A stretch of DNA of 64,000 nt from Candidatus Delongbacteria bacterium. Its GTDB lineage: Bacteria > UBA4055. Shown here piece by piece: positions 23,027 to 60,636 of this stretch. Every line of letters starts with the position of its first letter. Position 1 is the first letter of the stretch. The notes beneath the pieces were generated by a model. It was given only the letters and a program-made list of their open reading frames with translations, had not been told where the DNA came from and ran no database searches. Where the stretch lies: NCBI GenBank assembly GCA_016937995.1, contig JAFGVM010000064.1, forward strand, positions 27,636 to 91,635, in the 5' to 3' direction. A program made the position numbers and the translations under genes.

Positions 23027-23051
23027 TTTTTATTGCGACTCGCAATAAAAA
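23027..23051. promoter_or_regulatory. perfect 25-bp palindrome TTTTTATTGCGA-C-TCGCAATAAAAA in the 5' region of the second cyclase-STAND gene
   Basis: 12-bp perfect arms with a single-base centre, 45 nt upstream of the preferred ATG at 23096. The track's TTG start at 23033 falls inside it. Confidence 0.45.
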
Positions 23052-23095
23052 TCCCTATTTTATCCAAAACCATGAAAATATACGAGGAAGAAACT

Positions 23096-27521: not shown

Positions 27522-27621
27522 TAACAGGTCTTATCTTTAATTTTTAGCTACAGTATGAAAAATATAGTATTTTAATGAAATAGTAAAGAGGAAAATGAGA
27601 CTGAATTATAAAACAATTTCA

Positions 27622-28755: not shown

Positions 28756-28756
28756 A

Positions 28757-29842: not shown

Positions 29843-29859
29843 TTGATCTATACAATTCC

Positions 29860-34397: not shown

Positions 34398-34402
34398 CTA
34401 CT

Positions 34403-35266
34403 TTACTCTTTAATTGCCGCAAAGATCTTCTTAAATCCCGGTTTCAATGAAACGATCAGGACTGAAAACAATCCACCTAAAAACGTAGTCATTATGACCA
34501 TGAAAGATCTTTTTGGATATATTCTTTTTGAAGGTATGTAAGGTTTATTGACTACTGTAAAAACATTTGAGGATAAAACGAACTTATCTTCGATCTTGGT
34601 TGACAGTTTCTTTTCAAGCATTTGTATAACTCTTGAATCCTTAGTTTTATTTATTAGATCCTCATAAAACTCAATATCAGCCTGCAGATTTTCAACATTT
34701 TGATTTCTTATATAGTCTCTAAGGGTAATTAAAATTTCATTCATAAGCTCATAAGCAAAATATTTATCCTTCAATTTAACAGACAGACCTATAGTATTAT
34801 GATCAGTATTCACTGCGTATTTAATTACTTTTTCAAGAATTTTAATTGCAGTATCATGTTTCATCTGTTCTTTTAATTTTTTATCAGGCTCGATTTTATC
34901 AATTTTAGATAAAATATCTCCAAACAACCGTTCTTCTTTTTCGTATTTCTTATAAAATATTTCAAGGAAAGTATTGGATTTTAATGTTAGTAAGATCTGA
35001 TTTATCACAGGTGTACTTGTATAGCCACCAAGTGAAAATCCCATCAAATTAGTACTGGATTCCAATGATGTTTCCTCAGATGCTTCTGCGGGTTTAATGA
35101 TTGCATTCACTTCATAAATATGATCAACTACCAGTGAATAAATAATACTTCCAATTGCGAAGATCATTGTTATTAGTATAACCTGATATCTGTCTTTCCA
35201 AAGATTACGGATAAGATTATAAATGTTAAATTCATCCATCATGTCTTTCTGTTCTTCATTGCTCAT
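34403..35266 (-). CDS. polysaccharide chain-length determinant (Wzz-like) protein
   Basis: An N-terminal charged segment and then a transmembrane helix (YQVILITMIFAIGSIIYSLVV). The periplasmic coiled region and C-terminal transmembrane helix are typical of Wzz. Confidence 0.55.
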   Translation of the reverse strand: MSNEEQKDMMDEFNIYNLIRNLWKDRYQVILITMIFAIGSIIYSLVVDHIYEVNAIIKPAEASEETSLESSTNLMGFSLGGYTSTPVINQILLTLKSNTFLEIFYKKYEKEERLFGDILSKIDKIEPDKKLKEQMKHDTAIKILEKVIKYAVNTDHNTIGLSVKLKDKYFAYELMNEILITLRDYIRNQNVENLQADIEFYEDLINKTKDSRVIQMLEKKLSTKIEDKFVLSSNVFTVVNKPYIPSKRIYPKRSFMVIMTTFLGGLFSVLIVSLKPGFKKIFAAIKE

Positions 35267-35325
35267 TGCTATATCCTATTGTCCTTTAGTATTAATAATG
35301 ACTTTGTTATACGTATAAATTTGAT

Positions 35326-36921: not shown

Positions 36922-36933
36922 ATTTATCTATTC

Positions 36934-37422
36934 TTATATTTCTTTTATGATTTTCGCCGGTGTTCCGCCTATGATCACGTTATTCTCTGTGAAATCCTTG
37001 TTCACCACGGAGTTAGCAGCAACTATTATTCCTTTTCCAGTAATATTCACTCCTGCCAGGATCGTTGCTCCTGCACCTATCCAGCATTTTTCACCAATGA
37101 AAACAGGTTTGTCTATATGGTCTACCATACTACCGTCTTTTCTTTCATTCCAGCTGTCAGTATCGAGTCCGGTGGAAATTATCTTTACATGAGCAGAAAT
37201 AACAACATCATTAGAGATCGTAATTCCACCTGAACCGTTCAGATACGATCTATGATTTATAGCTACATTATCTCCAATACTGATCTTTTCAGGAGCTACC
37301 AGGTCAATAGGTCCATAGATCCTTATCTTATTTCCCTCAGGTATCCGTAAAAGTTTTTTATAGTAGAACAGTCTTAAATTGTTTCTTATTTCTAAGCATT
37401 TTGAGATCAATTTGAATATCAT
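36934..37422 (-). CDS. hexapeptide-repeat (LbH) acetyltransferase, WbbJ/maltose-O-acetyltransferase-like
   Basis: Imperfect tandem hexapeptides (IGDNVAINHRSYL..., IGEKCWIGAGATILAGVNITGKGIIVAANSVV). Confidence 0.7.
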   Translation of the reverse strand: MIFKLISKCLEIRNNLRLFYYKKLLRIPEGNKIRIYGPIDLVAPEKISIGDNVAINHRSYLNGSGGITISNDVVISAHVKIISTGLDTDSWNERKDGSMVDHIDKPVFIGEKCWIGAGATILAGVNITGKGIIVAANSVVNKDFTENNVIIGGTPAKIIKEI

Positions 37423-37481
37423 AAATCATTTCCTGAAATATTAGTATTGTTATACACTTTAAAATATAGCTGAACAGATCG

Positions 37482-38900
37482 TTAATATCCACTGTTTTTT
37501 AACGGCCAGTCATCAGTTCTGAAAGGGCTCAACGGAAGATCTTCAGAATTATAGACATTGCATTTTGGATCTGAACTCCATCCATACCTTACTGCAACAG
37601 GGTTATTAACATATTCGGAACTTAAGATAATATTTCCCCCTTCTAAATAAGCTTCAGCATCATAGAATATCCTGTTAACTGAAGCTATTTCAAATCCTGT
37701 GATATCGTCACCGATAAATTTTAAGCCGTCATATGTATTTACAAGATCTACAGTGATTTGTTCATTTTTTACGGTATGATCCCTGTATACTGGCCCCGAA
37801 TCAATTATTTTTTTGCTGTAAGTATTTTTTAATGCCAATAAAGATAATCTCCTCCCAACTTCCTGCTTATTTGCAGGATGGATATTGTCAGATTCACCGA
37901 TATCTATCGTTATGGCAATTCCTGTATTTACAGTATTTTCAGCTGCAAATTTCATTGATTCTCTCATCAAAGCCCAGTTGTAATCAATTTTGTAGTTCGG
38001 TAATTGAACAAAATAAAATGGTAAAGTCTCTTCATTCCAATTACTTCTCCAGTCATTTATCAAAACGGGAAGTTGAAACCGGTATTTATAGCAAGCTCCA
38101 TCAGTTCTGGTATTTCTTTCACCCTGATACCATATGAATCCTTTTATAGCAAACTCAGTAAAAGGAAAGATCATAGTATTAAAAATAGCAGAAGGGTAAT
38201 GTCTTTCCTCAAGATCAGAATATTGATGATTGTAAACATCCTCAATATATTGTTTTCCACCTTCAACTTTTATGTTTCCTTCCATAGATGTCCATGATTC
38301 GATCATTGAACTTCCGTAGGAGGAATTTATCAATCCAATGGGTATGTCTAAATTTTCATTCAGTTCTTTTCCGAAGAAATAAGCTGTTGCTGAAAAATCC
38401 TTAACATTTACAGGAGAGCAATACTCCCAGGTATCCAAGATCTCAGGTTCATCATTTAACTGAAGTTCATAGGATTGAGTTACAGTGAACAATCTAATAC
38501 AGGGGTTCTCGGATCTGCTGATCACGTCCTGACCATTTGTTGCAAAACTTGTGGATAGTACCATATTTGATTGCCCTGAGCAGAACCAGACATCACCAAT
38601 CAGTACATCTTCCAGATTTAAGATAATACCTTCTGATTCAAGTTCAAATAATACCGGTACTTTGGAAATTTTTAAGGGTTGAAATACAACACTCCATCTA
38701 TCATTATCATCGACTATTGTACTTTTTTCCTGATCACAAATCCTGACAATTACCTCATCACCCTGATCACCATATCCCCAAACTTTGATATCCTTATCTC
38801 TTTGAAGTATCATTTTATCCCTGAAAATACCTGATAAATAAGCCTCAGAGTAAAGTTGAGATATCAGGGAAATAAATATTATTGACAGAATTATTTTCAT
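37482..38900 (-). CDS. secreted sialate O-acetylesterase-family (carbohydrate esterase, GQSNM motif) protein
   Basis: Signal peptide, the hallmark block VWFCSGQSNMV and a size of 472 aa. Confidence 0.55.
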   Translation of the reverse strand: MKIILSIIFISLISQLYSEAYLSGIFRDKMILQRDKDIKVWGYGDQGDEVIVRICDQEKSTIVDDNDRWSVVFQPLKISKVPVLFELESEGIILNLEDVLIGDVWFCSGQSNMVLSTSFATNGQDVISRSENPCIRLFTVTQSYELQLNDEPEILDTWEYCSPVNVKDFSATAYFFGKELNENLDIPIGLINSSYGSSMIESWTSMEGNIKVEGGKQYIEDVYNHQYSDLEERHYPSAIFNTMIFPFTEFAIKGFIWYQGERNTRTDGACYKYRFQLPVLINDWRSNWNEETLPFYFVQLPNYKIDYNWALMRESMKFAAENTVNTGIAITIDIGESDNIHPANKQEVGRRLSLLALKNTYSKKIIDSGPVYRDHTVKNEQITVDLVNTYDGLKFIGDDITGFEIASVNRIFYDAEAYLEGGNIILSSEYVNNPVAVRYGWSSDPKCNVYNSEDLPLSPFRTDDWPLKNSGY

Positions 38901-39008
38901 GTTTTAACGAATTAAGTTTTCCTGTTGACATTTTTATAACCTTAATGTAATTTGATTTGTTCCAAAAAACAAGAAACCGTTAAAATAAAAAAAACATGGA
39001 GAACATCT

Positions 39009-39542
39009 ATGAAGAAAATCATTATTCTTGCTGTCGTTTTAGCAATTGTCAGCAGTTATGCTCAAAGATTGAAATGTATCACCACTATGTACGATAGTCC
39101 CAAAAAAGAAACTGTGATCTATGCTACATTCACTGATGGAAGTGTTTATTCAAGAGGCAGTGCTGATCAAAAATGGGATAAAGTGAGTATGGATGGAGTT
39201 CCTAAGGGAACCCGCTTCAAAGAGCTTACTGTAACTTATATCAACGGGGTTGCAGTTCTTTACGCACTTTCATACAAAGATGACATTTATTCTAGGATCA
39301 GTACTCAGGAAAAATGGGGTGTTATAGAGAAGAATGGTCTTCCTGCCGGAAGATTAGAGAATATTTCGGCTACAACAGCTGATAATGTTCTTGTTACTTA
39401 CGCAACTTATCCGAACGGAGATATATACTACAGAACAAACAAAGAAAAAGTTTGGATTAAAATTAACACAGATGGCTTACCAACAGATAAGAAAAAACCT
39501 GCTAAACCGATGAAACCCAAGAAACCTGTTAAGAACTTTTAA
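39009..39542 (+). CDS. secreted protein with three tandem repeats of about 45 aa and a Lys/Pro-rich basic tail (start moved to the internal ATG that has a GGAGAA Shine-Dalgarno)
   Basis: Signal peptide MKKIIILAVVLAIVSSYA. The repeats are YATFTDGSVYSRGSADQKWDKVSMDGVPKG, YALSYKDDIYSRISTQEKWGVIEKNGLPAG and YATYPNGDIYYRTNKEKVWIKINTDGLPTD. The tail is KKKPAKPMKPKKPVKNF. Confidence 0.5.
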   Translation: MKKIIILAVVLAIVSSYAQRLKCITTMYDSPKKETVIYATFTDGSVYSRGSADQKWDKVSMDGVPKGTRFKELTVTYINGVAVLYALSYKDDIYSRISTQEKWGVIEKNGLPAGRLENISATTADNVLVTYATYPNGDIYYRTNKEKVWIKINTDGLPTDKKKPAKPMKPKKPVKNF

Positions 39543-39556
39543 TGATTTTGTTGAAA

Positions 39557-39597
39557 TAAAAAAAGGATAGCTGTTGCTATCCTTTTTCTTTTTTTGA
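39557..39597. terminator. bidirectional intrinsic terminator (AGGATAGC-TGTT-GCTATCCT flanked by A7 and T-rich runs)
   Basis: A perfect 8-bp stem. T-runs follow on both strands, and the element lies between convergent genes 39009..39542 (+) and wzx (-). Confidence 0.6.
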
Positions 39598-40890
39598 TTA
39601 TAATTTTTTTGAGAACTGATACCACAGATCTGAAATTTCTTTTCGTTCAATAACAAATATCGATCTTACTGTGAATTTTTCTTTAATAACATACATCAGT
39701 ATATAAGACAATCCAAATATTGAGTATGAAGCAGTAGAAGCCCATGCAGCACCATTGATACCCAATACAGGGATAAGATATATATTCAGCACAAAATTGA
39801 CCGACAGTACAAGAAAAGCTGTTGCAAGATGAATGAACGGTTTTCCCTTGATAACAAAATAATGACTTCCTACTTTTCCAAATGTAAGAAAAAGAATACC
39901 GATCAGAAGTATTTTAACAACTTCAACTGAATCCTGATATTTTGCACCGTAAAGAATTTCAGAAGAAATTAAATTTACTCCAAAATATACCGGAATACTT
40001 ATCAATAACGTAATATAAAGCGAAAATTTCAAAGTTTTTGCTGTTAACATTCTGTATTCAGAACTATTAACGTCAAGATTATACAGTCTGGCTCTCAATG
40101 GATTTATTACGCTCATTGGTACCAACAGTATCATTTCAGCAATTCCAACACCGACTGAGTATAGACCGAGAGAGGTATCGTCGATATAGAATTTTATAAG
40201 CCACTGGTCCATTCTGTAGTTCAGATAGATAAAGAGTGCACCGAAATATACGACTATTCCATAGCTGATCTCTTCCAGAATTATCCTGAGATCGAACAGG
40301 AATTTGAATTTAATATTGATACTTTTTTTCATCATTATACAGCTGATGACACTTTTAAGAGAGAATACTATTAGGTAAGTTGTTACATTAAGATTTCCAG
40401 TAAGCCACAAAACGATGTATATAAAAATGATTAAGAATGAAGAATACAATGTGATCTTGTTCACTTGAATAATTTTCTCTTTACTTACGAACGTAGCATA
40501 TAGGAGATTATTTAGGAAAGTAAAAAATATTAGAGCAATGGAAGCTAAAGTGATTATTAGAAAACTATAGTCATTAAAAATTATACCGAAATATTTTAAT
40601 ATTACAAGAGTACCGGATATTAAGAATGAAATGATAAAAAGAAATGTAAAGTTAACTTTGAAGATCTGTTCAAGAGAGTGTTTTGATTTTCTCTGAAAAT
40701 AAGAAGTGGCATCAATTATTCCGATATGACCGAATTGAGCAAAGGCTGATAATGTCAGGATTAAAAATTTTGCATATCCAAGTTCTTTCGGTCCAAGACT
40801 TTTTGCTATTATCACACTCGTGAAAAAAGCCAGAAAGATATTTATTATCTTTGTGATAAAATCGAAAGATATATTTTTTTTATAACTCAT
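39598..40890 (-). CDS. polysaccharide flippase (Wzx, MOP superfamily)
   Basis: 430 aa with about 12 transmembrane helices in a polysaccharide locus, with Wzx-like topology. Confidence 0.6.
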   Translation of the reverse strand: MSYKKNISFDFITKIINIFLAFFTSVIIAKSLGPKELGYAKFLILTLSAFAQFGHIGIIDATSYFQRKSKHSLEQIFKVNFTFLFIISFLISGTLVILKYFGIIFNDYSFLIITLASIALIFFTFLNNLLYATFVSKEKIIQVNKITLYSSFLIIFIYIVLWLTGNLNVTTYLIVFSLKSVISCIMMKKSINIKFKFLFDLRIILEEISYGIVVYFGALFIYLNYRMDQWLIKFYIDDTSLGLYSVGVGIAEMILLVPMSVINPLRARLYNLDVNSSEYRMLTAKTLKFSLYITLLISIPVYFGVNLISSEILYGAKYQDSVEVVKILLIGILFLTFGKVGSHYFVIKGKPFIHLATAFLVLSVNFVLNIYLIPVLGINGAAWASTASYSIFGLSYILMYVIKEKFTVRSIFVIERKEISDLWYQFSKKL

Positions 40891-41611: not shown

Positions 41612-42937
41612 ATGTCGATGAAATACACTTTTAAAGGTGGATATCACCCTCCTGACGGGAAAGAATTCTCAGAGAAGAAGTCAATTGAAAAGATGCCACT
41701 ACCAAAGACCGTGGCAATTCATCTGCACCAACATATCGGTGCTCCTTCAAAAGCTATCGTAGCAATTGGGGATGAAGTAAAAGTAGGTCAGCCATTGAGT
41801 GAGGCAGGTGGATTTGTATCAATTCCTGTTCATGCTTCTATCTCAGGAAAAGTAAAAGCCATTGCAAAGATAACAGATGCAGGTGGCAATAAAAGTGATG
41901 CGGTCATCATTGAAAGTGATGAAAAAGATGAAATGTTCGAAGGTGTAGGGATTAAAGTTGATTATGATAACTTCACTGCTGACGAGATAAAGAAAAAAAT
42001 AGCTGCTTGCGGTATCGCAGGAATGGGTGGTGCCAGATTTCCTACCCACGTTAAGCTTTCACCACCGGCTGACAAGAAAATCGATTATATCATTCTTAAT
42101 GGTGTTGAATGTGAACCATATCTTACGGCTGATGACAGATTAATGCAGGAAAGTCCGGAAACTATCATAGAAGGTCTTAAGTTGATGATGAAAACCGTAA
42201 ATGCATCGAACGGTATCATCGGTATTGAAAAAAACAAGCCTGATTCAATAAAGATCATGACTGATAAAACTTCGTCAATAGATAATATCAAAGTTATTGA
42301 TCTTGAAGTGAAATATCCTCAGGGTGGAGAAAAACAGTTGATCTATGCTGCTATCAAGAAAGAAGTTCCGTCCGGTGGTCTTCCAATGGATGTTGGAGTA
42401 GTAGTTTCAAATGTAGGGACTGCAAATGCAGTATATGAAGCTGTTGCCTTAAATAAACCTTTCTATGAAAGAGTTGTTTCTGTAACTGGTGAATCTATTA
42501 AAGATCCAAAGAATGTTCTCGCTAGAATAGGTACACCATCTTCTGAACTTATTGAGTTTGCAGGTGGATTGAAGGAAGACATTTATAAAGTTGTAAATGG
42601 TGGACCTATGATGGGTGCTGCAATGTATGAAATGGAAGCACCTGTTCATAAGGGAACTTCGGGAATTCTTTGCCTGAGTAAAGAAAATGCAAAAGTATTT
42701 ACAGAACTTGCATGTATCAGCTGTGGTAAATGTGTTTCGGTCTGTCCTTTAAAACTTTTGCCTACTGACATTCAGCTTAATATTCAGCACGGTAAATATG
42801 AAGAATCTGAGAAACTGGGATTGTTAGACTGTATGTTATGTGGAACATGCGCGTATGTTTGTCCGTCAAAAAGAAATCTAGTTCACTGGTTCAATGTTGG
42901 AAAAGCAAAAATAGCAGAAATGAAAAGAAAAGCTTAA
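41612..42937 (+). CDS. rnfC: Rnf electron transport complex subunit C
   Basis: NADH/FMN-binding region (CGIAGMGGARFPTHVKL) and two C-terminal 4Fe-4S motifs (CISCGKCVSVCP, CMLCGTCAYVCP). Confidence 0.85.
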   Translation: MSMKYTFKGGYHPPDGKEFSEKKSIEKMPLPKTVAIHLHQHIGAPSKAIVAIGDEVKVGQPLSEAGGFVSIPVHASISGKVKAIAKITDAGGNKSDAVIIESDEKDEMFEGVGIKVDYDNFTADEIKKKIAACGIAGMGGARFPTHVKLSPPADKKIDYIILNGVECEPYLTADDRLMQESPETIIEGLKLMMKTVNASNGIIGIEKNKPDSIKIMTDKTSSIDNIKVIDLEVKYPQGGEKQLIYAAIKKEVPSGGLPMDVGVVVSNVGTANAVYEAVALNKPFYERVVSVTGESIKDPKNVLARIGTPSSELIEFAGGLKEDIYKVVNGGPMMGAAMYEMEAPVHKGTSGILCLSKENAKVFTELACISCGKCVSVCPLKLLPTDIQLNIQHGKYEESEKLGLLDCMLCGTCAYVCPSKRNLVHWFNVGKAKIAEMKRKA

Positions 42938-42967
42938 TTAAAACTATTAAAATAAAAAGGTAAATAA

Positions 42968-43999
42968 ATGGATAAAATGTTAATTGTATCGGCTAATCCC
43001 CATATAAGAAGCAAAGCATCCGTGACCAAAATAATGCATATGGTAAATCTTTCATTGTTGCCGGCATTATTCATGTCTTACTATTACTTTGGTTTCAGAG
43101 CGATATTTTTGACTTTGGTCAGTGTTGTTTCAGCTGTTGTAACGGAAGCTGCAATTCAGAAATTCAGAAAAGTACCTGTGACAGTGTCTGACGGAAGTGC
43201 TATTCTTACCGGGATCCTTCTTGCATTCAATGTTCCTGCTTATATTCCATGGTGGATAGTTATGCTTGGATCATTTTTTGCGATAGCAATTGCAAAACAG
43301 GCATTCGGTGGTCTCGGTTTCAATATCTTCAACCCAGCTTTGATCGGAAGGGCTTTCATGCTTGCATCATGGCCGGTTGAAATGACATCAAATAAATTCT
43401 GGGCAAATCCAGTAGCGAGTTTTGGAGCTAAAACAGGTCAGACAATGGATGCAATTTCTTCAGCAACTCCACTTAATCTCGTAAAGACAGCATTAAAAGC
43501 TGATCCTACGCAAATCACCTGTGATATTCTTAGCAAAGCGAATGATGCAGGATATGCAGGAGCGACTTACTGGGATCTGTTTGTGGGTAATGTTTCAGGA
43601 TGTATCGGGGAAACTTCATTCCTTGCATTACTGATCGGAGTAATTTTCTTAATGATCTTAGGTCTTGTGAACTGGAGAGTACCTTTCTTCTACATAGGCG
43701 GAGTATTTGTATTCACATGGTTACTGGGATATGATCCTGTATTCCATATACTGGCAGGTGGACTTGCATTAGGAGCATTCTATATGGCTACTGATATGGT
43801 AACCTCACCTATATCGAACAAAGGAAATATAATTTTTGCAATAGGTCTTGCATTTTTCACGGTAGCAATAAGGATCTGGGGTGGATATCCTGAAGGTGTA
43901 TCATATTCGATACTGCTTATGAACTGTGCAGTGCCATTGATAAATAAATTCACAGTACCTAAAAAATTCGGGTGCGTTAAACCGGTAAAAGCTAACTAA
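42968..43999 (+). CDS. rnfD: Rnf complex subunit D (NqrB-like membrane subunit)
   Basis: A polytopic membrane protein with a conserved FMN-attachment region (TDMVTSP, Thr-containing motif); gene order is rnfC-D. Confidence 0.8.
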   Translation: MDKMLIVSANPHIRSKASVTKIMHMVNLSLLPALFMSYYYFGFRAIFLTLVSVVSAVVTEAAIQKFRKVPVTVSDGSAILTGILLAFNVPAYIPWWIVMLGSFFAIAIAKQAFGGLGFNIFNPALIGRAFMLASWPVEMTSNKFWANPVASFGAKTGQTMDAISSATPLNLVKTALKADPTQITCDILSKANDAGYAGATYWDLFVGNVSGCIGETSFLALLIGVIFLMILGLVNWRVPFFYIGGVFVFTWLLGYDPVFHILAGGLALGAFYMATDMVTSPISNKGNIIFAIGLAFFTVAIRIWGGYPEGVSYSILLMNCAVPLINKFTVPKKFGCVKPVKAN

Positions 44000-44009
44000 A
44001 GGAGCAGTA

Positions 44010-44765
44010 ATGGGAAACATTATAAAATTATCATCCATTCTCTTTTTTGTTGCGGGAATCGCAGCAGGCAGTTTAGCTTTTTACAACAGCTTTACTAAGC
44101 CTGAAATAGCGAAACTGAAGGCTGAGAATGAAACAAAAGCAAGGGGTTATGTTCTTCAGGGATTAATTCCTGATGATCAGATACCTGGACTGATATATGA
44201 AGAAGGGCAAATTGAAATTAACGGAATGAAGGAAAAGTTCTGGAAAGTCAAAACTCCAGGTTCAAACCAGTACAAAGCTCTGGTATTTCTGGCAAAAGGT
44301 CAGGGATTTTCAGGAGTTGTCGAGACAATGGTAGCTACCGACATGAACTTCAAGATAAACGGAATTAAAGTTCTGAAACATACTGAAACACCCGGACTGG
44401 GTGCTGAAGCTCAAACTGTAAAGTACGGAGATACAAAACCGTTTTTTGAAGGGTGGTTCAAAGAGAAGAACTCTTTAAATGTTATTGTTGAAAAAGATGA
44501 TCCGAATTCTGCCGATAAAGTTCAGTCAATTACCGGAGCAACTATAACAACAAGGGCAGTATGTAACAGTATCAACAAATATGCTGAATTAGTTAAGAAG
44601 CAAATGGGAGCTGTACAGGGACAGATCGTTATTGATCAGTCAAAAGTAGTTTCAGTAGACAGAGAAGCGATCATGAAAGCCAGGGCTGAAGCGGCAGCAA
44701 AGGCCGAAGCAGAAAAAGATACTACTGTTACGGAAGATACTCCAGAAGGAGGTAAAGATGAATAA
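44010..44765 (+). CDS. rnfG: Rnf complex subunit G (FMN-binding)
   Basis: An N-terminal transmembrane anchor and the FMN_bind motif SITGATITTRAV. Confidence 0.8.
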   Translation: MGNIIKLSSILFFVAGIAAGSLAFYNSFTKPEIAKLKAENETKARGYVLQGLIPDDQIPGLIYEEGQIEINGMKEKFWKVKTPGSNQYKALVFLAKGQGFSGVVETMVATDMNFKINGIKVLKHTETPGLGAEAQTVKYGDTKPFFEGWFKEKNSLNVIVEKDDPNSADKVQSITGATITTRAVCNSINKYAELVKKQMGAVQGQIVIDQSKVVSVDREAIMKARAEAAAKAEAEKDTTVTEDTPEGGKDE

Positions 44766-45381
44766 ATTACAGAATTTTACTAAAGGGTTCTTCAAAGAGA
44801 ATCCTGTGCTTGTACTGGCTCTTGGTCTTTGTCCGTCTTTGGCTGTTACAACTTCAATTGAGAATGGCCTGGGTATGGGAATGGCATCAACTGCAGTTCT
44901 TGTAGGATCAAGTACACTGGTGTCAATGCTGAAGAAGTATATTCCAGGAAGTATAAGAATACCTATATTTATCGTAATAATTGCAACATTCGTAACATTG
45001 ATAGATTTAACACTTCAGGCTTTTATTCCCTCATTGAGTGAGTCACTAGGTCTGTTCATCCCTCTTATAGTTGTAAATTGTATTATTCTGGGAAGAGCTG
45101 AGGCATTTGCTTCAAAGAAAAGTGTTCTGGACTCGATCATTGATGCTATAGGAATGGGTATAGGTTTCACAATAGCACTTGTGCTTATCAGTGCTGTAAG
45201 AGAGTTTGCCGGAACAGGAGCTCTTTACGGATATCCTTTATTCCAGTTAATGGGAATTGAAGGTTTTAAGGGTTCTATTCTGATGATACTGCCTCCGGGA
45301 GGTTTTTTGACAATGGGATTGATCCTAGGTTTCATGCAGTGGAATAAAGTTAGAAAAGCAAAAAATACGGGAGGTAAATAA
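44758..45381 (+). CDS. rnfE: Rnf complex subunit E
   Basis: A NqrD/RnfE-type 6-TM protein (LALGLCPSLAVTTS, LGLFIPLIVVNCIILGRAEAFA). Confidence 0.8.
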   Translation: MNKLQNFTKGFFKENPVLVLALGLCPSLAVTTSIENGLGMGMASTAVLVGSSTLVSMLKKYIPGSIRIPIFIVIIATFVTLIDLTLQAFIPSLSESLGLFIPLIVVNCIILGRAEAFASKKSVLDSIIDAIGMGIGFTIALVLISAVREFAGTGALYGYPLFQLMGIEGFKGSILMILPPGGFLTMGLILGFMQWNKVRKAKNTGGK

Positions 45382-45986
45382 TGGATTTTTCACATCTCGT
45401 GGTCATAGCTGTATCGTCTATATTTATAAACAATTTCGTTCTGGGTAGATTTTTGGGTATCTGTCCATTCATTGGTGTATCAAAGAAAATTGACAGTGCT
45501 CTTGGAATGGGAATGGCGGTAATATTTGTTATGACTCTGGCATCAGTAGTTACTTATCTTATTCAGACTTTTGTACTTGTAAGGTTTGAACTTCAGTACC
45601 TGCAAACTATAGCGTTTATCCTGGTTATTGCTTCTCTTGTCCAATTCATAGAAATGTTCATGAAGAAAAATATGCCAGCTCTATATCAGTCTTTAGGTGT
45701 ATTTCTTCCTTTGATCACTACAAATTGTGCAGTACTGGGTGTGGCTATTCTTAATATAGATGCTACCTGGGCTGACGGCTCTCACTATAACTTTATTGAA
45801 TCAACCTGGAACGGATTCACAGCAGGAATCGGATTTACAATAGCATTGTTGCTTATGGCAGGTATCAGAGAAAGATTAGAGCTTGCAGATATTCCTGAAA
45901 GTATGAAGGGAACACCTATTACTTTTATATCAGCAAGTCTTATAGCAATGGCTTTTCTGGGATTCAGCGGAATGAGTATTATGTAA
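45381..45986 (+). CDS. rnfA: Rnf complex subunit A
   Basis: A NqrE/RnfA-type 6-TM protein (LGICPFIGVSKKIDSALGMG, LGVFLPLITTNCAVLG). Confidence 0.8.
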   Translation: MDFSHLVVIAVSSIFINNFVLGRFLGICPFIGVSKKIDSALGMGMAVIFVMTLASVVTYLIQTFVLVRFELQYLQTIAFILVIASLVQFIEMFMKKNMPALYQSLGVFLPLITTNCAVLGVAILNIDATWADGSHYNFIESTWNGFTAGIGFTIALLLMAGIRERLELADIPESMKGTPITFISASLIAMAFLGFSGMSIM

Positions 45987-46072
45987 ATGAGTGATTAGTG
46001 GTTAGTGGCTTGTTTCTGAATAATTCTAACTACTAAATTCTAAATTAAACGATTTTTATTGGAGATAAATAA

Positions 46073-47020
46073 ATGGATACAACTCAAATAATAACTGCTT
46101 TTTTATCGGTCGGACTGATCGGAGCTATTCTGGGAGCTGTTCTCGCTTATGCCTCTAAAGTATTCCATGTTGAGGTTGATCCCAAAGTTGAGAAAATTGC
46201 TGAAATATTACCACAGGCTAATTGTGGAGCATGTGGTTATCCCGGATGTTCAGGTTATGCTGATGCAGTGGTCACTAAAGGAACTGATATTACTCTATGT
46301 TCACCAGGGGGACAAGATGTTATTGATCAAATAGCATCAATTATGGGAGTAGAAGCAACTGCTGGAAAAGCAATGGTTGCGTATTGTGCTTGTAACGGTA
46401 CAAAAGAAAACGCAAAAGACAGATTTGAATATTACGGACCTGAAAAATGTAGTAGTGCTGTATTTGTTTCGGGTGGACATAAAGCTTGTGATTATGGATG
46501 TTTAGGTTTCGGAGAATGCGTAGAAGCCTGTACATTCGGAGCTATGTATATGGATGAAAAAACAGGCTTACCTGTTGTCATAGATGAAAAATGTGTTGGT
46601 TGTGGAGCTTGTGTAAGAGCATGTCCTAAAGATGTTATGAAACTTATGCCTAAAGACAGCAAAGTATACATTGCTTGTAATTCAAAAGCTAAAGGTAAAG
46701 AAGTAAGTGATTCATGTAAAGTTGGATGTATCGGTTGTAAGATATGTACTTTACCGAATACTACCCCTTCAGGAGCTGTTAAAATGGAAGGCGATCTTCC
46801 TGTCATTAATTATGAATTACCTGATGATCTTGTTGCAGCTAAATATAAATGTCCTAAATCATGTTTTATTGATAAAGGTGATGCTGAGAAGTCTGCTGAA
46901 GAGATCGCTAAAGAGAAAGCTGACTGGAAAGCTGCTGACGCTGAAAAGACAGCTGCGGCAAAGAAAGCTGCGTTGGAAAAAGCAGAAGCTGCTAAGGCTG
47001 CAAAAGAAGCGGGAATGTAA
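46073..47020 (+). CDS. rnfB: Rnf complex subunit B (ferredoxin-type) with a C-terminal Ala/Lys/Glu-rich low-complexity extension
   Basis: An N-terminal transmembrane helix, a Cys cluster (CGACGYPGCSGYADAV) and multiple 4Fe-4S motifs (CVGCGACVRACP and others). The last roughly 50 aa are EEIAKEKADWKAADAEKTAAAKKAALEKAEAAKAAKEAGM. Confidence 0.8.
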   Translation: MDTTQIITAFLSVGLIGAILGAVLAYASKVFHVEVDPKVEKIAEILPQANCGACGYPGCSGYADAVVTKGTDITLCSPGGQDVIDQIASIMGVEATAGKAMVAYCACNGTKENAKDRFEYYGPEKCSSAVFVSGGHKACDYGCLGFGECVEACTFGAMYMDEKTGLPVVIDEKCVGCGACVRACPKDVMKLMPKDSKVYIACNSKAKGKEVSDSCKVGCIGCKICTLPNTTPSGAVKMEGDLPVINYELPDDLVAAKYKCPKSCFIDKGDAEKSAEEIAKEKADWKAADAEKTAAAKKAALEKAEAAKAAKEAGM

Positions 47021-54382: not shown

Positions 54383-55594
54383 TTATAAGTAAGCATTTTC
54401 TCCATGAAGAACTTCATCAACTCCTAACTCTTCTTCTTCCTTAGAAACTCTAGCCGGAGTAAATTTATTTATAACGATCAGCATTACATATGTAAATATG
54501 AATGCATATATCGATGCACCAATTACTGCAGCAGTCTGCTTCCAGAAGAACATTCCACCACCGTAAAGTAATCCATCCGCTCCACCTGGATTAACTGCTG
54601 TTGAAGCAAATACTCCAAGTAATATGACACCAATAGTTCCACCTACACCGTGAACTCCCCATACATCAAGAGCATCATCCCAATTTAACTTATTTTTCAT
54701 TGCTACAGCCAGGTAACAAACAGCTCCAGCTATGATACCGATGAACATGGCTGACACAGGAGATACAAAACCAGCTGCAGGTGTAATTGTTGCCAATCCT
54801 GCCACTGCACCTGTAAGAAGACCTACAAATTTAGGCTTTTTAATATGATTCCATTCTATTATCAGCCAGGTAATTGCAGCAAAAGAAGCAGCAATATCTG
54901 TGTTTACGAACGCAATAGCAGTAATAGAATCTACCTTTAACTCACTACCGGCATTGAAACCATACCATCCGAACCAGAGAAGACCAGTTCCAAGTGCAAC
55001 CAATGGAATACTGTGAGGGCCATGTTCTGATACTTTCCTGTTTCCAAGAAAGAACACTGAAGCCAAAGCTGCCATACCTGCTATTGCATGAACAACTATA
55101 CCACCTGCAAAATCAAGAACACCCCATTGCTGTAAAATTCCGCCACCCCAAACCATGTGAACGAACGGGAAATAAACAAAAAGCAACCATAGGACTAAGA
55201 AGATCAAATATGCTTTGAATCTGATCCTGTTAGTGAAAGCTCCTGTAATAAGAGCAGGTGTGATAATAGCGAACATCATCTGATATGCCACAAATACAAG
55301 GACCGGTATTCTTCCGTCAGCTGAAAACGCATCTGTAATCGAAATACCCTGCAAAAATGCATTATCAAGATTACCGATCACACCTCCGATATCCCCGCTA
55401 AAGCAAAGTGAATATCCTACTGCGAACCATAAAATTGTCGTGATTCCCATTGACACAAAACTCTGCATCATAATACTGAGCACATTCTTTCTTCCTACCA
55501 GACCACCGTAGAAGAATGCAAGTCCCGGTGTCATTAACATTACCAGACTTGTTGCCAGAAGCATAAAACCTGTGTTACCTGTGTTGAAATCCAT
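54383..55594 (-). CDS. amt: ammonium transporter (Amt family)
   Basis: 11-TM Amt signature blocks (DFAGGIVVHAIAG, GAVAGLATITPAAGFV, tandem His-containing helices). Confidence 0.85.
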   Translation of the reverse strand: MDFNTGNTGFMLLATSLVMLMTPGLAFFYGGLVGRKNVLSIMMQSFVSMGITTILWFAVGYSLCFSGDIGGVIGNLDNAFLQGISITDAFSADGRIPVLVFVAYQMMFAIITPALITGAFTNRIRFKAYLIFLVLWLLFVYFPFVHMVWGGGILQQWGVLDFAGGIVVHAIAGMAALASVFFLGNRKVSEHGPHSIPLVALGTGLLWFGWYGFNAGSELKVDSITAIAFVNTDIAASFAAITWLIIEWNHIKKPKFVGLLTGAVAGLATITPAAGFVSPVSAMFIGIIAGAVCYLAVAMKNKLNWDDALDVWGVHGVGGTIGVILLGVFASTAVNPGGADGLLYGGGMFFWKQTAAVIGASIYAFIFTYVMLIVINKFTPARVSKEEEELGVDEVLHGENAYL

Positions 55595-55760
55595 AACTAC
55601 TCCATTCTAGTTAATTTTATATAATATTTTGTTTTCATTTAATAATTTGAAATATTTAAAAATTAGATAAATGAAACGAATCGATCATTTATCTACGATA
55701 TTACTAAAGGTTAGTATGAAATTATGATATGGTTAAAAATTCAAATAAGTTCAAGAAAAT

Positions 55761-57005
55761 TTACAAATATGCAGTTTCACCATGCTGTCCTTCATCAAGA
55801 CCGGAATTCTCTTCTTCCTCTGAAACTCTTACATCAGTGATCTTATTTACGATCCAAAGCATAAAAAGAGTGAACAGGAAAGCATAAATAGCAGCAAATA
55901 TTACTGCCCCTGTCTGTTTGAAAAGAAAAGCAATATTTCCGTCGATCAATCCACTTGCTAAACTAGAAGCATCTTTACCGAGAAAAGTCATGGTATTAGT
56001 TCCTAAGATACCAAGGAGTATAACTCCAAGAAGTCCGCCGATCCCATGTATTCCGAAAACATCAAGTGCATCATCTAGGCCGGCCCTGTTCTTAAAATAA
56101 ACTGCAATATAGCAAGCAACAGAAGCTAATGTCCCAATTATTACGGCAGATTGAGGAGAAACATAACCTGCAGCAGGTGTAATACATGCCAATCCTGCAA
56201 CTGAACCCGTAAGAAAACCTAATAGTTTCGGTTTTCTTGTAAATATCCAGTCAAGCAATAGCCATGTTGGACCTGCAAAAGAAGCTGCTATGTCAGTATT
56301 TATAAAAGCCAGTGTTGTAATAGGATCAACTTCGAACTCACTTCCCGCATTAAATCCGTACCATCCGAACCACAAAATACCGGTCCCTAATGCTACAAGA
56401 GGAATACTGTGCATACCTTTATCTGAAATTTTTCTTTTACCTATGAATATAACTGAAGCTAAGGCTGCAAACCCGGCTGTAGTATGCACTACTATGCCTC
56501 CTGCAAAATCCTTAATACCCCAATGAGATAATAATCCGCCACCCCAGACCATATGTACGAGAGGGAAATAAACAAATATCTGCCATACTACCAGGAATAT
56601 TATATATGCGGAAAATCTTACTCTGTTTGCAAATGCTCCAGTGATCAAAGCTGGTGTTATAATAGCGAACATCATTTGATAAGCTACAAACACATAAATC
56701 GGTACTCCCGGATTTACAGGACTTGGATCAACAAGTGTAATTCCGCTAAGGAATATGTGATCAAAATTTCCAATGATACCAAGAATATCCCCGTTCCCGT
56801 AAGAACCGCTAAAGCAAATTGAATAACCAAATGCAAACCATAATATCGTAGTTAAACCCAGAGAAACAAAGTTTTGGAACATAATAGTAATAACATGTTT
56901 TCTTCCGACTAATCCTCCGTAAAAAAAAGCCAGTCCGGGTGTCATGAACATAACTAAGCTGGTAGCTATTAGCATAAAGCCAGTGCTTGCAAGGTCAAAA
57001 TTCAT
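55761..57005 (-). CDS. amt: ammonium transporter (Amt family), tandem paralog
   Basis: Same blocks (DFAGGIVVHTTAG, GSVAGLACITPAAGYV), with about 60% identity by eye to the downstream copy. Confidence 0.85.
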   Translation of the reverse strand: MNFDLASTGFMLIATSLVMFMTPGLAFFYGGLVGRKHVITIMFQNFVSLGLTTILWFAFGYSICFSGSYGNGDILGIIGNFDHIFLSGITLVDPSPVNPGVPIYVFVAYQMMFAIITPALITGAFANRVRFSAYIIFLVVWQIFVYFPLVHMVWGGGLLSHWGIKDFAGGIVVHTTAGFAALASVIFIGKRKISDKGMHSIPLVALGTGILWFGWYGFNAGSEFEVDPITTLAFINTDIAASFAGPTWLLLDWIFTRKPKLLGFLTGSVAGLACITPAAGYVSPQSAVIIGTLASVACYIAVYFKNRAGLDDALDVFGIHGIGGLLGVILLGILGTNTMTFLGKDASSLASGLIDGNIAFLFKQTGAVIFAAIYAFLFTLFMLWIVNKITDVRVSEEEENSGLDEGQHGETAYL

Positions 57006-57068: not shown

Positions 57069-57494
57069 TCATACATTTTGGTAAGGAGGAGGTCTCGGTA
57101 AAGCTGTATTTGAAGATTCTTTCCGTATAAAAGAAATAAAATATAAAAAACTTATGATCTGTTTTACAGGATCGAAATTAAAGAATTTATAAAAAAATGC
57201 GAAAGAACCAAGAAGAAAGAATATCATACTCAACTCTAGTCTTGAAATATTAACAAGAGAGTTCTCATTATCAATGAACAGGGTTTGTGGCCGAGGTTCA
57301 AAGAAGTTTTTACTTGATATTAAATTTGTGGAGCTAGAGAATGGATATGTGTTCATGAACGAGAAGGTCCGTGTGCTCTTTCCTGATTTAATTACTTTAT
57401 CTAGTTCAATGTAAATATCAATGAAAAAGACTAAACTTATCAATGTGATAAGGAAAAATATACCTGTTCTATCGTTGTGTTTCTTTATATCCAC
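57069..57494 (-). CDS. hypothetical membrane protein
   Basis: 141 aa with 2-3 hydrophobic helices and no recognisable motifs. Confidence 0.3.
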   Translation of the reverse strand: MDIKKHNDRTGIFFLITLISLVFFIDIYIELDKVIKSGKSTRTFSFMNTYPFSSSTNLISSKNFFEPRPQTLFIDNENSLVNISRLELSMIFFLLGSFAFFYKFFNFDPVKQIISFLYFISFIRKESSNTALPRPPPYQNV

Positions 57495-57639: not shown

Positions 57640-58872
57640 TCAGTCAATACCGATCATATCTCCGTAGCTTTCAGCAATGAAATCAATATCCTTATCACCC
57701 CGGCCGGAAAGGTTAACAAGAATTGTTTCACTTGGCTCTAAAGAAGATGCTAATTTGATAGCAAAAGCTATAGCATGAGAGCTTTCAAGGGCTGGAATTA
57801 TTCCTTCATTTTTTGACATAATACTGAATGCTTCAATAGCTTCGGTGTCATTAATTGTTTCGTATCTTATACGTTCAATATCCTTCAGATAAGAATGTTG
57901 TGGTCCGACACCGGGATAATCAAGACCACTGGCAATAGAATGTACAGGTGAAGGTTCACCATTCTCATTCTGCAATAAATAACACATAAATCCATGAATT
58001 ACTCCGGGTTTCCCTAATGTCAATGTTGCTGCATGCTCTCCATCTTTAAAACCTTTTCCGGATGGTTCTACTCCATGTATCTGCACATTTTTATCTTCTA
58101 AAAAAGCTGTAAATAGACCAATTGCATTAGATCCTCCTCCAACACAGGCAACAAGATGATCAGGAAGTTTTCCGGTTTTTTGTTGGAATTGTGCCCTTGC
58201 TTCTTCGCCGACTATCTGCTGAAAATCTCTGACCATCATAGGGAAGGGATGAGGACCTACAACTGAACCGATTGCATAGAACTGTGTGACGGGATCCTGC
58301 ATGTAAGCCATAAACGCTGAATCTACAGCTTCTTTAAGAGTTTTAAGACCGAATGTTACTGGAACTACTTTTGCACCGAGTATCTTCATCCTGATCACAT
58401 TTGGGTGCTCTTTTGCAATATCCACTTCACCCATATGGATCTCACATTGCATATCAAGTAATGCTGCTGCTGTTGCCAAAGCAACTCCATGCTGACCTGC
58501 ACCAGTTTCTGCAATAACTTTTTTCTTTCCCATTTTCTTTGCAAGTAATACTTCACCAAGGCAGTGATTGATCTTATGTGCTCCGGTATGATTGAGATCT
58601 TCTCTTTTGAAGTATATCTGTGCACCTCCAACTTTTTGGGACAAGCTTTTTGCGTGATAAACAGGTGAAGGTCTACCAGTGTAATCCCGGTTTAATCTTA
58701 TGAGTTCGGTTTTGAATTCCTCAGTTTCAATAATACGATAGTAAGACTCAGTGATCTTCTGCATTTCTTCTACCAATTGCGGTGGAAGATAAGCTCCCCC
58801 GTACTCACCGAAATACCCCTTTTCATCTGGGAGTTGTTTTGTTTTTGTTCTTTCAGCTGTGATCGTTTCCAT
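57640..58872 (-). CDS. trpB: tryptophan synthase beta chain (stand-alone; start moved to the ATG preceded by an AAGGAG Shine-Dalgarno, so the protein begins [10 protein letters not shown])
   Basis: PLP-dependent fold-II TrpB signatures ([24 protein letters not shown] Lys-PLP site, GSNAIG). No trpA is adjacent. The track's 10-codon N-terminal extension contains the Shine-Dalgarno and is rejected. Confidence 0.85.
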
Positions 58873-58902
58873 TTTGCTTCTCCTTTTGTTTATTTTTTGC
58901 AT

Positions 58903-58972
58903 AAAAAAAGTCGCTCTAAGGCGACTTTTAACAATTAAAAAAGCCGCAGACAGTTCATACCATCTACGGCTT
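58903..58972 (-). terminator. two tandem intrinsic terminator hairpins in the trpB leader (attenuator terminators)
   Basis: On the minus strand, AAGCCGUAGA-12 nt loop-UCUGCGGCUU + UUUUUU (58935-58972), then AAAAGUCGC-CUUAGA-GCGACUUUUUUU (58903-58929). Both lie immediately 5' of the trpB ribosome-binding site. Confidence 0.6.
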
Positions 58973-58999
58973 ATATTTTATAAAACTATAGATAGTGGG

Positions 59000-59047
59000 C
59001 TAGATTGTCCACCACCAGAAGTTCATTAAAGATATGTTCGTATTCAT
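59000..59047 (-). CDS. trpL: trp leader peptide (MNTNISLMNFWWWTI; the minimal version MNFWWWTI starts at 59026) with three consecutive Trp codons
   Basis: The minus-strand read is ATG AAT ACG AAC ATA TCT TTA ATG AAC TTC TGG TGG TGG ACA ATC TAG. It lies about 30 nt upstream of the terminator hairpins, and the start choice among three in-frame ATGs is uncertain. Confidence 0.55.
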   Translation of the reverse strand: MNTNISLMNFWWWTI

Positions 59048-59205
59048 TTTTTCCATCGGGCTAAATCTAACACTAAATTTATTTGATGTCAAGCTGTTTT
59101 AATATTTAGATTTTTCACTTCAGTGTTAAAATTACTAATTGATTTACGGGTTAAAATTACATATAATGCAGTAGGAAAAGGAATTAACTTAAAAGGAATT
59201 AAAAA

Positions 59206-60636
59206 ATGTTGGAGATCTACAATAGCTATTCAAAGAAAAAAGAGACATTCAAACCTGTAGCTGAGGGTAAAGTTAACATATATACTTGTGGTCCAACTGT
59301 ATACAGTAATGCTCACGTAGGTAATTTCTCAGCATTTTTAATGGCTGATGTACTTGTAAGATATTTAAAATACAAAGGGTATGATGTTAAGTGGGTAATG
59401 AATATAACCGATGTTGGTCATTTAACTGATGATAATGAAGTTACTGATGATGGTGAAGATAAATTAGAAGCTGCTTCTAAGAGAGAAAATAAAACTGTTT
59501 GGGAAATTGCAAGACACTATGAAGATCTTTTTATGGGGGATATTCGAACCCTTAAGCTTTTTCCTGCTGATAAATATCCCAGAGCAACTGAACATGTTGA
59601 AGAAATGATCGAAATGATAAAGATTCTTCAGCAAAAAGAAGTTATTTATGAAACATCGGACGGAGTTTATTTCGATATTTCAAAGTTTAAGAAATACGGA
59701 AAACTTTCAGGTAATGATATTGAGGCATTACAAGCCGGATCGAGGGTAGAGATCAATGAGGATAAGCGGTCAGCATATGATTTTGCATTATGGAAGAAGC
59801 TTACAGGTAAAAATGAAAAACATATAATGCAGTGGGACAGCCCGTGGGGAACAGGTTTCCCTGGATGGCATATTGAATGCAGTGCAATGAGTAAAAAATA
59901 TCTTGGAGAAACACTTGATTTCCATACAGGCGGTGAAGATAATAAATTTCCACATCATGAAAGTGAAATAGCTCAATCAGAAACCGCAAACTGCAAACCG
60001 TTCGCGAACTACTGGATGCATAAGAGCAGAGTTATTGTAAATAATGAAAAAATGAGTAAATCCCTAGGTAATTTCTTCACAGTTCAGGACCTTCTGAAGC
60101 TTGGATATACTCCTGAATCCATAAGGTTCACTTTTGTCAGTGTGCACTACAGGTCTAAATTGAATTTTACTGAGGAAAAACTGGTAGAATCACAAAAATC
60201 GATCGATAAATTCAATGATTTTATTCAATTTTTGATCAAATCTGAGGAGACTGTAGAAAATAGTTCAATTTCTTCTATTATAAAATCTACGAAACAGCAA
60301 TTTGAAAAAGCTATGGATGACGACCTGAACGTTTCAGGAGCTCTTGCACCTCTTTTCGGTTTTATGAAGTCAATCAGAAAGCAGATAAACAGTTCTGGCA
60401 TATCTGCAAAAAATAAAGATGAGATCCTTCATTTTATGAAGAGTATTAATTCAATATTCGAAGTCTTCGATTTTGAAGAGAAAAAAGAAAAAAAATTAAG
60501 CATATCTGATCAGAAGACAGTTGAAGAACTTATCAAGAAAAGAGAGCAATTCAGATCAGAGAAAAATTGGGTGGAAGCTGATAAGGTCAGAGATGAGTTA
60601 AATAAAATGGGGGTAAAAATTGAAGATAAAAAATAG
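59206..60636 (+). CDS. cysS: cysteinyl-tRNA synthetase
   Basis: Class I HIGH variant (NAHVGNF), Zn-binding Cys (TCGPTVY, HIECSAM) and KMSKS (KMSKSLGN), 476 aa. Confidence 0.9.
   Translation: MLEIYNSYSKKKETFKPVAEGKVNIYTCGPTVYSNAHVGNFSAFLMADVLVRYLKYKGYDVKWVMNITDVGHLTDDNEVTDDGEDKLEAASKRENKTVWEIARHYEDLFMGDIRTLKLFPADKYPRATEHVEEMIEMIKILQQKEVIYETSDGVYFDISKFKKYGKLSGNDIEALQAGSRVEINEDKRSAYDFALWKKLTGKNEKHIMQWDSPWGTGFPGWHIECSAMSKKYLGETLDFHTGGEDNKFPHHESEIAQSETANCKPFANYWMHKSRVIVNNEKMSKSLGNFFTVQDLLKLGYTPESIRFTFVSVHYRSKLNFTEEKLVESQKSIDKFNDFIQFLIKSEETVENSSISSIIKSTKQQFEKAMDDDLNVSGALAPLFGFMKSIRKQINSSGISAKNKDEILHFMKSINSIFEVFDFEEKKEKKLSISDQKTVEELIKKREQFRSEKNWVEADKVRDELNKMGVKIEDKK

Follow-up and report, generated by a model that had tools for sequence, protein, structure and literature searches.

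Classical transcription attenuators with repeated UGG codons in a leader reading frame are already established or predicted in Proteobacteria and Actinobacteria. The transcript of the Sinorhizobium meliloti trpL, a ribosome-dependent trp attenuator, starts at the ATG, so that its leader peptide is leaderless (PMC7298713). Candidate attenuators of Actinobacteria (Corynebacterium and Streptomyces) carry double or triple UGG codons, GC-rich terminators and U-tracts, and those of C. diphtheriae precede trpB1EDGC and trpB2A, some standing directly before trpB (PMC1262725). Here we analysed the leader of the trpB gene in a 64-kb stretch of contig JAFGVM010000064.1 from Candidatus Delongbacteria (the whole stretch is called the window). 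Its sequence and predicted folds suggest that it is very probably a classical ribosome-mediated transcription attenuator, which would sense charged tRNA-Trp and control the monocistronic trpB. An earlier note on this DNA had likened the arrangement to Escherichia coli trpL, and this reading held: the upstream open reading frame (uORF), the 1:2 hairpin, the 2:3 antiterminator and the terminators are conserved in 12 distinct loci. Within the literature collection searched, nothing was returned on Delongbacteria and tryptophan, nor on attenuators of Bacteroidetes or Thermotogales; attenuators in Bacteroidetes/Chlorobi were reportedly predicted by Vitreschak et al. (2004).

Leader elements and their conservation upstream of trpB

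All leader coordinates are positions in the window; the leader and trpB are on the minus strand. The elements of the leader are as follows.

59064 to 59092, minus strand: sigma-70-like promoter, TTGACA (59092-59087), 17-nt spacer, TG-TAGATT (59069-59064)
59000 to 59056, minus strand: leader-peptide uORF (trpL-like), 18 codons plus TAG, MEKMNTNISLMNFWWWTI
59009 to 59017, minus strand: three consecutive Trp codons UGG UGG UGG, the putative sensing site, invariant in 12 of 12 loci
58991 to 59016, minus strand: 1:2 hairpin, GGUGGUGG (Trp codons) paired with CCACUAUC, directly 3' of the stop codon
58959 to 58996, minus strand: 2:3 antiterminator, ACUAUCUAU (58996-58988) paired with GUAGAUGGU (58967-58959), 9 bp
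58937 to 58972, minus strand: terminator T1 (3:4), AAGCCGUAGAUGGU-AUGA-ACUGUCUGCGGCUU plus U6, 14 pairs
58903 to 58929, minus strand: terminator T2 (5:6), AAAAGUCGC-CUUAGA-GCGACUUUU, U7 run
58921 to 58947, minus strand: proposed 4:5 pairing, GCGGCUUUU (3' arm of T1, 58947-58939) with AAAAGUCGC (5' arm of T2, 58929-58921)

The uORF ends in ATG AAC TTC TGG TGG TGG ACA ATC TAG, with the Trp codons at 59017-59009 and the stop at 59002-59000, just as the earlier note had described it ahead of trpB; TGGTGGTGG occurs once on the two strands of the 64 kb, against 0.06 expected. The upstream ATG named for a 15-aa version is present at 59047, and a further in-frame ATG at 59056 gives an 18-aa form (MEKMNTNISLMNFWWWTI); it is ATG 59056, not 59047, that relatives conserve. 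After the stop codon come CCCACUAUCUAU, an AU-rich spacer and T1. The pairing claimed between the post-stop segment and the 5' half of the next hairpin is present as the 9-bp helix 2:3, with arms ACUAUCUA(U) at 58996-58988 and (G)UAGAUGGU at 58967-58959. Segment 3 (GUAGAUGGU) is also the 5' arm and loop side of T1, making 2:3 and T1 mutually exclusive. The strong terminator with U6 was recovered as T1 (58972-58937, 14 pairs), the sole terminator-like site in a scan of the leader, and AAUUGUU separates it from T2. The hairpin and U7 run of T2 were borne out too, but its abutment on the trpB ribosome-binding site is not general: the U-run of T2 lies about 30 nt from the trpB ATG (58872) in the window, and the distance from T2 to the ribosome-binding site is about 130 nt in two relatives (L164 and L165). 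To this description we add the classical 1:2 hairpin between the WWW codons and the post-stop sequence, which is an anti-antiterminator and possibly also a pause hairpin.

Relatives were obtained by exact-protein look-ups and from the DNA around the closest TrpB proteins (177 trpB loci fetched, L001-L177). The closest TrpB matches (identities of 90%, 88% and 83%) belong to metagenome-assembled genomes (MAGs) labelled Candidatus Delongbacteria and 'Cloacimonetes'. We detected the same leader design in eleven further distinct loci (L001, L002, L161, L162, L164, L165, L166, L168, L169, L172, L175), from Candidatus Delongbacteria and similar MAGs with TrpB 79-90% identical; with the window they make 12. 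Common to the 12 loci are a uORF ending in WWW, two codons and a stop, the 1:2 hairpin with the Trp codons, the 9-bp 2:3 antiterminator, T1 and T2. In every one of these loci the element is found just ahead of a solitary trpB and on its strand, while the flanking genes differ between loci. A covariance model built from the 12-locus alignment and run on all 177 loci scored the members at 69-141 bits and everything else at 35.5 bits or less, finding no member beyond the 12 (the next matches were terminator-like). A metagenome scan with TrpB gave matches of at most 74% identity and no new members of the leader family.

The uORF frame is conserved more strictly than its sequence. In all 11 relatives that include the full region, the frame containing the UGG codons runs open for 19-45 codons upstream, on average 28.5, as against averages of 4.0 and 13.2 for the other two frames; in each of the 11, the stop lies exactly two codons past WWW. 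The uORFs range from 18 to 39 aa, and the peptides are unrelated apart from the WWW-x-x-stop ending. Conservation of frame, start codon and stop position in a uORF of varying sequence argues for a translated sensor and not for a purely structural RNA. Among the four closest uORFs, the length goes from 18 aa (window) to 23, 27 and 36 aa (L161, L002 and L001) via ..TNIS(T/V)LNL.. repeats; uORF length appears unconstrained and appears to grow by short tandem duplications.

The promoter scan matched 10 of 12 consensus positions plus an extended -10 TG, and the gap between the end of the -10 hexamer and the uORF ATG is 7 nt. The same spacing recurs in 8 of 11 loci, which have a TTGAC(A/T) -35 element at exactly -36 from the uORF ATG (6 + 17 + 6 + 7 nt) and a 7-nt spacer of variable sequence, without a Shine-Dalgarno (SD) sequence, between the -10 element and the ATG. 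The exceptions are L164 and L165, with SD-like sequences, and L162, which is ambiguous. The fixed promoter-ATG geometry suggests a likely transcription start on or next to the A of the uORF ATG, and the leader peptide is probably leaderless or nearly so. A consensus scan found no minus-strand promoter-like site downstream of 59064, including the interval between the terminators and trpB, suggesting that trpB expression needs read-through.

The 191-nt leader has a minimum free energy (MFE) of -47.7 kcal/mol (z = -3.6), and none of 200 shuffles was equally stable. Its MFE fold consists of three hairpins, with the 1:2 hairpin present in both the MFE and the centroid structure. Structure tests used the model-fitted alignment A4 of the 12 sequences, which was not fitted to the alternative fold. 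In the terminated fold (1:2, T1 and T2), 97.8% of cells are paired, against 34-58% in slid controls, and 10 of 30 pairs are compensated (changed on both sides). Column shuffles reached the observed value in 0 of 500 cases on four of five measures, and in 3 of 500 on further pair types. Across the 12 sequences, the 1:2 helix is 95% paired with one compensated pair and the T1 helix is 100% paired with two. The T2 helix, kept in 12 of 12 loci, is 98% paired, and the compensation of 7 of its 9 pairs indicates that T2 is under selection and is no accident of this genome.

In the alternative fold (2:3 plus 4:5), pairing extends to 89.8% of cells, compared with 35-55% for slid controls. For RNA truncated ahead of segment 4, the MFE structure is 2:3 in 12 of 12 loci; in the RNA from segment 4 to segment 5 alone, 4:5 is the MFE structure in 12 of 12 loci (-8.1 to -13.6 kcal/mol). 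RNAalifold on plain MAFFT alignments also finds both 9-bp helices. The earlier note had named folding and comparison with relatives as checks of its reading. Both states, 1:2/3:4 and 2:3, were found, 2:3 being the MFE structure before segment 4 emerges, and the WWW uORF and hairpins are kept in all eleven relatives, with T1 and T2 in 12 of 12 loci.

Several points weigh against the attenuator reading. The alternative fold has one compensated pair only (A-U to G-C, two sequences, in 2:3); 19-30 of 500 shuffles reach its observed percentage of pairing and covariation score, and 126-324 of 500 reach the observed values on the other three measures. Such thin covariation is expected for an antiterminator, because each column must satisfy two helices, and its support is mainly conserved pairing potential. 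The helix energies in the window are -10.4 (1:2), -11.1 (2:3), -20.4 (T1), -9.9 (4:5) and -10.8 kcal/mol (T2), and T1 plus T2 are about 10 kcal/mol stabler than 2:3 plus 4:5. The terminators are thus a thermodynamic sink, and antitermination and read-through must be kinetic. UGG is the only Trp codon and is also segment 1, so its conservation could be partly structural. The promoter is a consensus match only, and the evidence throughout is of sequence and folding.

Proposed attenuation mechanism and the role of T2

From the elements observed here, their conservation, the covariation seen in three helices (1:2, T1, T2) and the potential for pairing that 2:3 and 4:5 retain across loci, we infer a scheme that takes in ribosome footprints, folding order, a leaderless start, a 4:5 relay and a physiological role. 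Transcription would start at or next to the uORF AUG, as the promoter geometry suggests, and a ribosome would translate the 18-codon leader close behind RNA polymerase. With ample Trp-tRNA, the ribosome would get to the stop two codons past WWW and, spanning about 12-15 nt further, would cover segment 2 (58996-58988); alternatively, 1:2 would re-form after release. Segment 3 would then be free for segment 4, T1 would form and transcription would terminate at U6, and polymerase escaping T1 would meet T2, which would form too. With scarce Trp-tRNA, the ribosome would stall on UGG UGG UGG with its A site empty, covering roughly up to the stop codon. The stalled ribosome would mask segment 1, leaving segment 2, which begins 4 nt past the stop, free to capture segment 3 on its emergence, and T1 would not form. 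The freed segment 4 (GCGGCUUUU) would pair with the 5' arm of T2 (AAAAGUCGC), T2 would not form, and trpB would be transcribed. In a leader without translation, 1:2 would form and transcription would terminate. The footprints assumed in this scheme are drawn from established ribosome dimensions. Physiologically, Trp would be made on demand from indole and serine.

It is plausible that pairing of the 3' arm of T1 with the 5' arm of T2 lets one stall open both terminators. Unless T2 were relieved too, it would defeat induction, and the 4:5 pairing is the sole conserved candidate for such relief, available exactly when 2:3 keeps segment 4 out of T1. Its 9-pair consensus has only 2 unpaired cells (U-U) in the 12-sequence alignment, and the helix is approximately isoenergetic with T2 and transcribed ahead of the 3' arm of T2. 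In its fullest form, the proposal is that the leader works as a domino attenuator. One ribosome stalled on a leaderless WWW peptide would open two terminators (2:3, then 4:5), so that the solitary stand-alone TrpB1 would have a very low basal level and could be induced fully; with it, uncultured anaerobes (Delongbacteria-like and relatives) would make Trp from environmental indole, and lone trpB genes of a cross-phylum clade would have repeatedly gained unrelated Trp-codon leaders. We put this forward tentatively, leaning somewhat more towards doubt than towards acceptance.

The observations that weigh against the relay are those that suit a T1-only attenuator, in which T2 would be an unregulated, partly efficient second terminator lowering output or acting as a fail-safe, and 4:5 a by-product of terminators built from an A-tract, a GC core and a U-tract. 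The 4:5 helix has no compensated pair; its energy compared with dinucleotide shuffles gives p = 0.03-0.28; and in a specificity control of only 11 unrelated window terminator arms, one arm pairs with segment 4 better than the real partner does (-12.0 against -11.3 kcal/mol). The other W-run leaders before the same trpB clade, described below, have a single terminator. The T1-only account is possible but in our view rather doubtful, as it fits poorly with the selection on T2 (12 of 12 loci, 7 of 9 pairs compensated), and an unregulated hairpin plus U7 directly before trpB would cap induced expression. In addition, nearly all cells of 4:5 remain able to pair while T2 varies (alignment column 144, for example, holds no base other than U and C, and either can pair with the invariant G111), and folding of the nascent segment gives 4:5 as the MFE structure in 12 of 12 loci, with about the energy of T2. 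On the narrower choice between the 4:5 relay and an unregulated T2, we consider the case about evenly balanced.

Other regulators and the trpB gene

The promoter, small ORF (open reading frame) and terminators could also be an independent small-protein or small-RNA gene, trpB having its own promoter and no regulation. The roughly 130 nt between T2 and trpB in L164 and L165 could hold such a promoter, and terminated attenuator RNAs and peptides of Sinorhizobium meliloti can act in trans (PMC7298713, PMC6614838). This reading is nevertheless very unlikely: in the window T2 and the trpB ATG are only 30 nt apart and the promoter scan of the minus strand found no candidate downstream of 59064, strict linkage of the element to trpB, with unchanged orientation, persists despite differing flanks in every locus, and the peptide is unconserved beyond WWW.

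We would be similarly surprised if a protein, tRNA or small ligand controlled the terminators (TRAP-like, T-box or riboswitch), with UGGUGGUGG conserved only as RNA structure. UGGUGGUGG does belong to the 1:2 helix, and the leader weakly resembles (19.9 bits) RF04312, the trpB motif of Rfam, which is a candidate orphan riboswitch found in Firmicutes and Fusobacteria (PMC11109978). That motif was rejected as a match (E = 3.9, against a 59-bit threshold; different phylum and design). The permissive Rfam scan of the leader (58700-59400, E up to 10) gave nothing above the gathering score, the sub-threshold matches being mostly terminator-driven; Phe_leader scored 15.6 bits against a gathering score of 55, and neither Trp_leader (RF00513) nor the T-box model gave a match. 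TRAP binds 9-11 (G/U)AG repeats separated by 2-3 nt. The 191-nt leader has seven scattered (G/U)AG triplets, and the longest run with 2-3-nt spacers is 0. The arguments of the earlier note against a T-box and a TRAP site are upheld by these results. Furthermore, the uORF varies in length and sequence, yet its frame, its start codon and the +2-codon position of its stop are kept in 11 of 11 loci, and an RNA-only element needs none of these three.

A TnaC-like nascent-peptide sensor, in which free Trp would arrest the ribosome at the uORF stop and control downstream transcription, superficially resembles the present design in the Trp residues near the stop of a short uORF, as in tnaC, but is hardly credible: induction at high Trp suits a catabolic gene and has the wrong sign for a biosynthetic TrpB, arrest at the stop would place the ribosome over segment 2, to the advantage of T1, the peptide is unconserved beyond WWW, and intrinsic terminators with a matching antiterminator are not a Rho-dependent design.

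The trpB gene and its terminator are located as follows.

57640 to 58885, minus strand: Shine-Dalgarno sequence and trpB, AAGGAG at 58885-58880, ATG at 58872, stop at 57640, 410 aa
57585 to 57618, minus strand: intrinsic terminator directly 3' of trpB, AAAAGACCGAAA...UUUCGGUCUUUUUUU

By its family scores, the trpB product is a canonical, intact TrpB1 and not TrpB2: it reaches 557.6 bits against TIGR00263 (TrpB1; cut-off 392.45) and 176.6 bits against TIGR01415 (TrpB2), below the cut-off of 518.85. The PALP domain was found, and the best solved-structure match is the reconstructed last-bacterial-common-ancestor (LBCA) TrpB (5ey5_B, 513 bits, gapless alignment). An in-frame ATG at 58902, giving a 420-aa ORF, was dismissed as a start of trpB, since it lacks an SD sequence, lies inside the T2 tail and is out of frame in L001. 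The intrinsic terminator directly after the stop codon makes trpB monocistronic. Other trp-pathway families had no match in 49 of the 50 window ORFs of at least 150 aa (all but the 1227-aa ORF at 23033-26716). trpB is solitary within the window, in agreement with the earlier note.

The divergent gene upstream of the leader is cysS, for which a promoter-like site (TTGATT-17-TATAAT, 59139-59167, plus strand) lies in the 330-bp intergenic region common with the trpB leader promoter. On the 3' side of trpB, a 141-aa ORF is followed by two tandem ammonium-transporter (amt) genes within 54383-57005 (minus strand). The 141-aa ORF (57069-57494, minus strand, GTG start) has no Pfam or NCBIfam match and no homologue in any fetched locus, and it may not be a real gene; with a terminator in between, no family match and no homologues, it was rejected as a partner gene of trpB. 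The window further contains an Rnf operon (rnfC, D, G-like, E, A, B; 41612-47020, plus strand), a large glycosyltransferase and polysaccharide cluster (26730-40890, minus strand) and a hybrid-cluster (prismane) protein (18713-20383, minus strand). This gene content, amt included, is typical of an anaerobe.

The window TrpB is found in a highly conserved (64-90% identity), cross-phylum clade of TrpB1 type, with members in Spirochaetes, Desulfobacterota, Bacteroidales, Ignavibacteria, Fibrobacterota, Krumholzibacteriota and some Gammaproteobacteria. A trpA-sized ORF just downstream is absent from nearly all of the 177 loci (TrpB identity of 64% or more), and Trp_syntA had no match in the ten nearest downstream ORFs tested. 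Gammaproteobacteria normally carry a complete trp operon, and their trpB of this clade would presumably be an additional one.

Further uORFs with a W-run, of unrelated sequence, were observed 100-250 nt upstream of trpB genes of the same clade, in Marinilabiliales and other lineages (L006, L014, L026, L030, L037, L081, L096, L097; L025, L092, L093; L043, L109; L170; L148). They include MLNLLFNNWWWHSS.., MKANLKHINSWRWWQH.. and ..SQWWWLRD.., with a single terminator after each; in several, the ATG comes 6-7 nt after a -10-like hexamer, and these would be leaderless too. Such non-homologous uORFs around the same trpB clade suggest that peptide-based Trp sensing is widespread near this gene. The remark of the earlier note that this kind of attenuation is rarely documented outside Proteobacteria and Actinobacteria is fair, yet these uORFs qualify it. 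In L176 (5830-6000) and L177 (4820-4990), a conserved stretch of about 170 nt without a W-uORF stands directly upstream of a trpB homologue (74% identity, 3.8-Mb genome) and is possibly a different regulatory element.

The solitary trpB may serve indole salvage, although dispersed trp genes occur elsewhere, which weakens this interpretation. In Pelodictyon luteolum, a natural TrpB1 encoded outside the operon is highly active without TrpA, and trpA lies elsewhere in the genome (PMC11917138). The window TrpB is alike in being a TrpB1-type protein encoded outside a trp operon. It keeps three of the six 'Res6' stand-alone residues (E52, S203, M296) reported for the LBCA and P. luteolum TrpB (PMC11917138), a count that gives no support either way for stand-alone activity.

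Comparison with known systems

Like E. coli trpL (RF00513), the leader has a small uORF in which tandem Trp codons precede the stop by a few codons, four segments forming the helices 1:2 (hairpin), 2:3 (antiterminator) and 3:4 (terminator with a U-run), and a stop codon so positioned that the terminating ribosome would cover segment 2. The relative helix stabilities of E. coli trpL follow the pattern seen in the window. Unlike E. coli trpL, the leader has three Trp codons instead of two, a second conserved terminator (T2), a uORF that is probably leaderless and not SD-led, trpB alone as its target in place of the whole trpEDCBA operon, and a host from a Delongbacteria-like candidate phylum. 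There is no homology in sequence or structure between the two, judging from the Rfam scan (no match, E up to 10).

The proposed relay has a parallel in the his leader of Salmonella and E. coli, where A:B, C:D and E:F alternate with B:C and D:E and one stall propagates through the hairpin chain. The proposed scheme of 1:2, 3:4 and 5:6 against 2:3 and 4:5 resembles it. Only the last hairpin terminates in the his leader, whereas in the window both 3:4 and 5:6 have U-runs.

As a leaderless trpL is documented in S. meliloti, a leaderless start is not new in kind; it was mapped there and is deduced from promoter spacing in the window. The S. meliloti trpL (rnTrpL/peTrpL) regulates trpE(G) through a single terminator, unlike the window leader with trpB and two terminators. 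The actinobacterial attenuators differ in lineage and sequence and precede multigene operons, and no tandem terminators are described for them (PMC1262725). The Chlamydia indole-salvage operon trpRBA is reported to be regulated by TrpR, YtgR and Trp-dependent attenuation (PMC7755916). It would share with the window the Trp-responsive attenuation of indole-salvage genes, but trpRBA keeps trpA, and the window trpB has no trpA nearby.

Taken together, the results carry leader-peptide attenuation into a candidate phylum without cultured members, well supported by comparison between loci, and give a 12-member RNA family absent from Rfam. The tandem terminators make a simple test case for joint relief, and the relay is the part most worth experiment. 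A monocistronic TrpB1 without a nearby trpA, if induced by Trp starvation and if the rest of the pathway is missing, would point to indole as a shared metabolite in anaerobic communities. Current understanding is not overturned. The design joins features known separately, namely a leader peptide that is probably leaderless, a possible relay of hairpins and a target that begins with trpB, and adds a conserved second terminator. Compared with the described attenuators, what is new here is a family outside Rfam, in a candidate phylum, with tandem terminators that are conserved and a start that is probably leaderless; mechanistically, it follows the established scheme.

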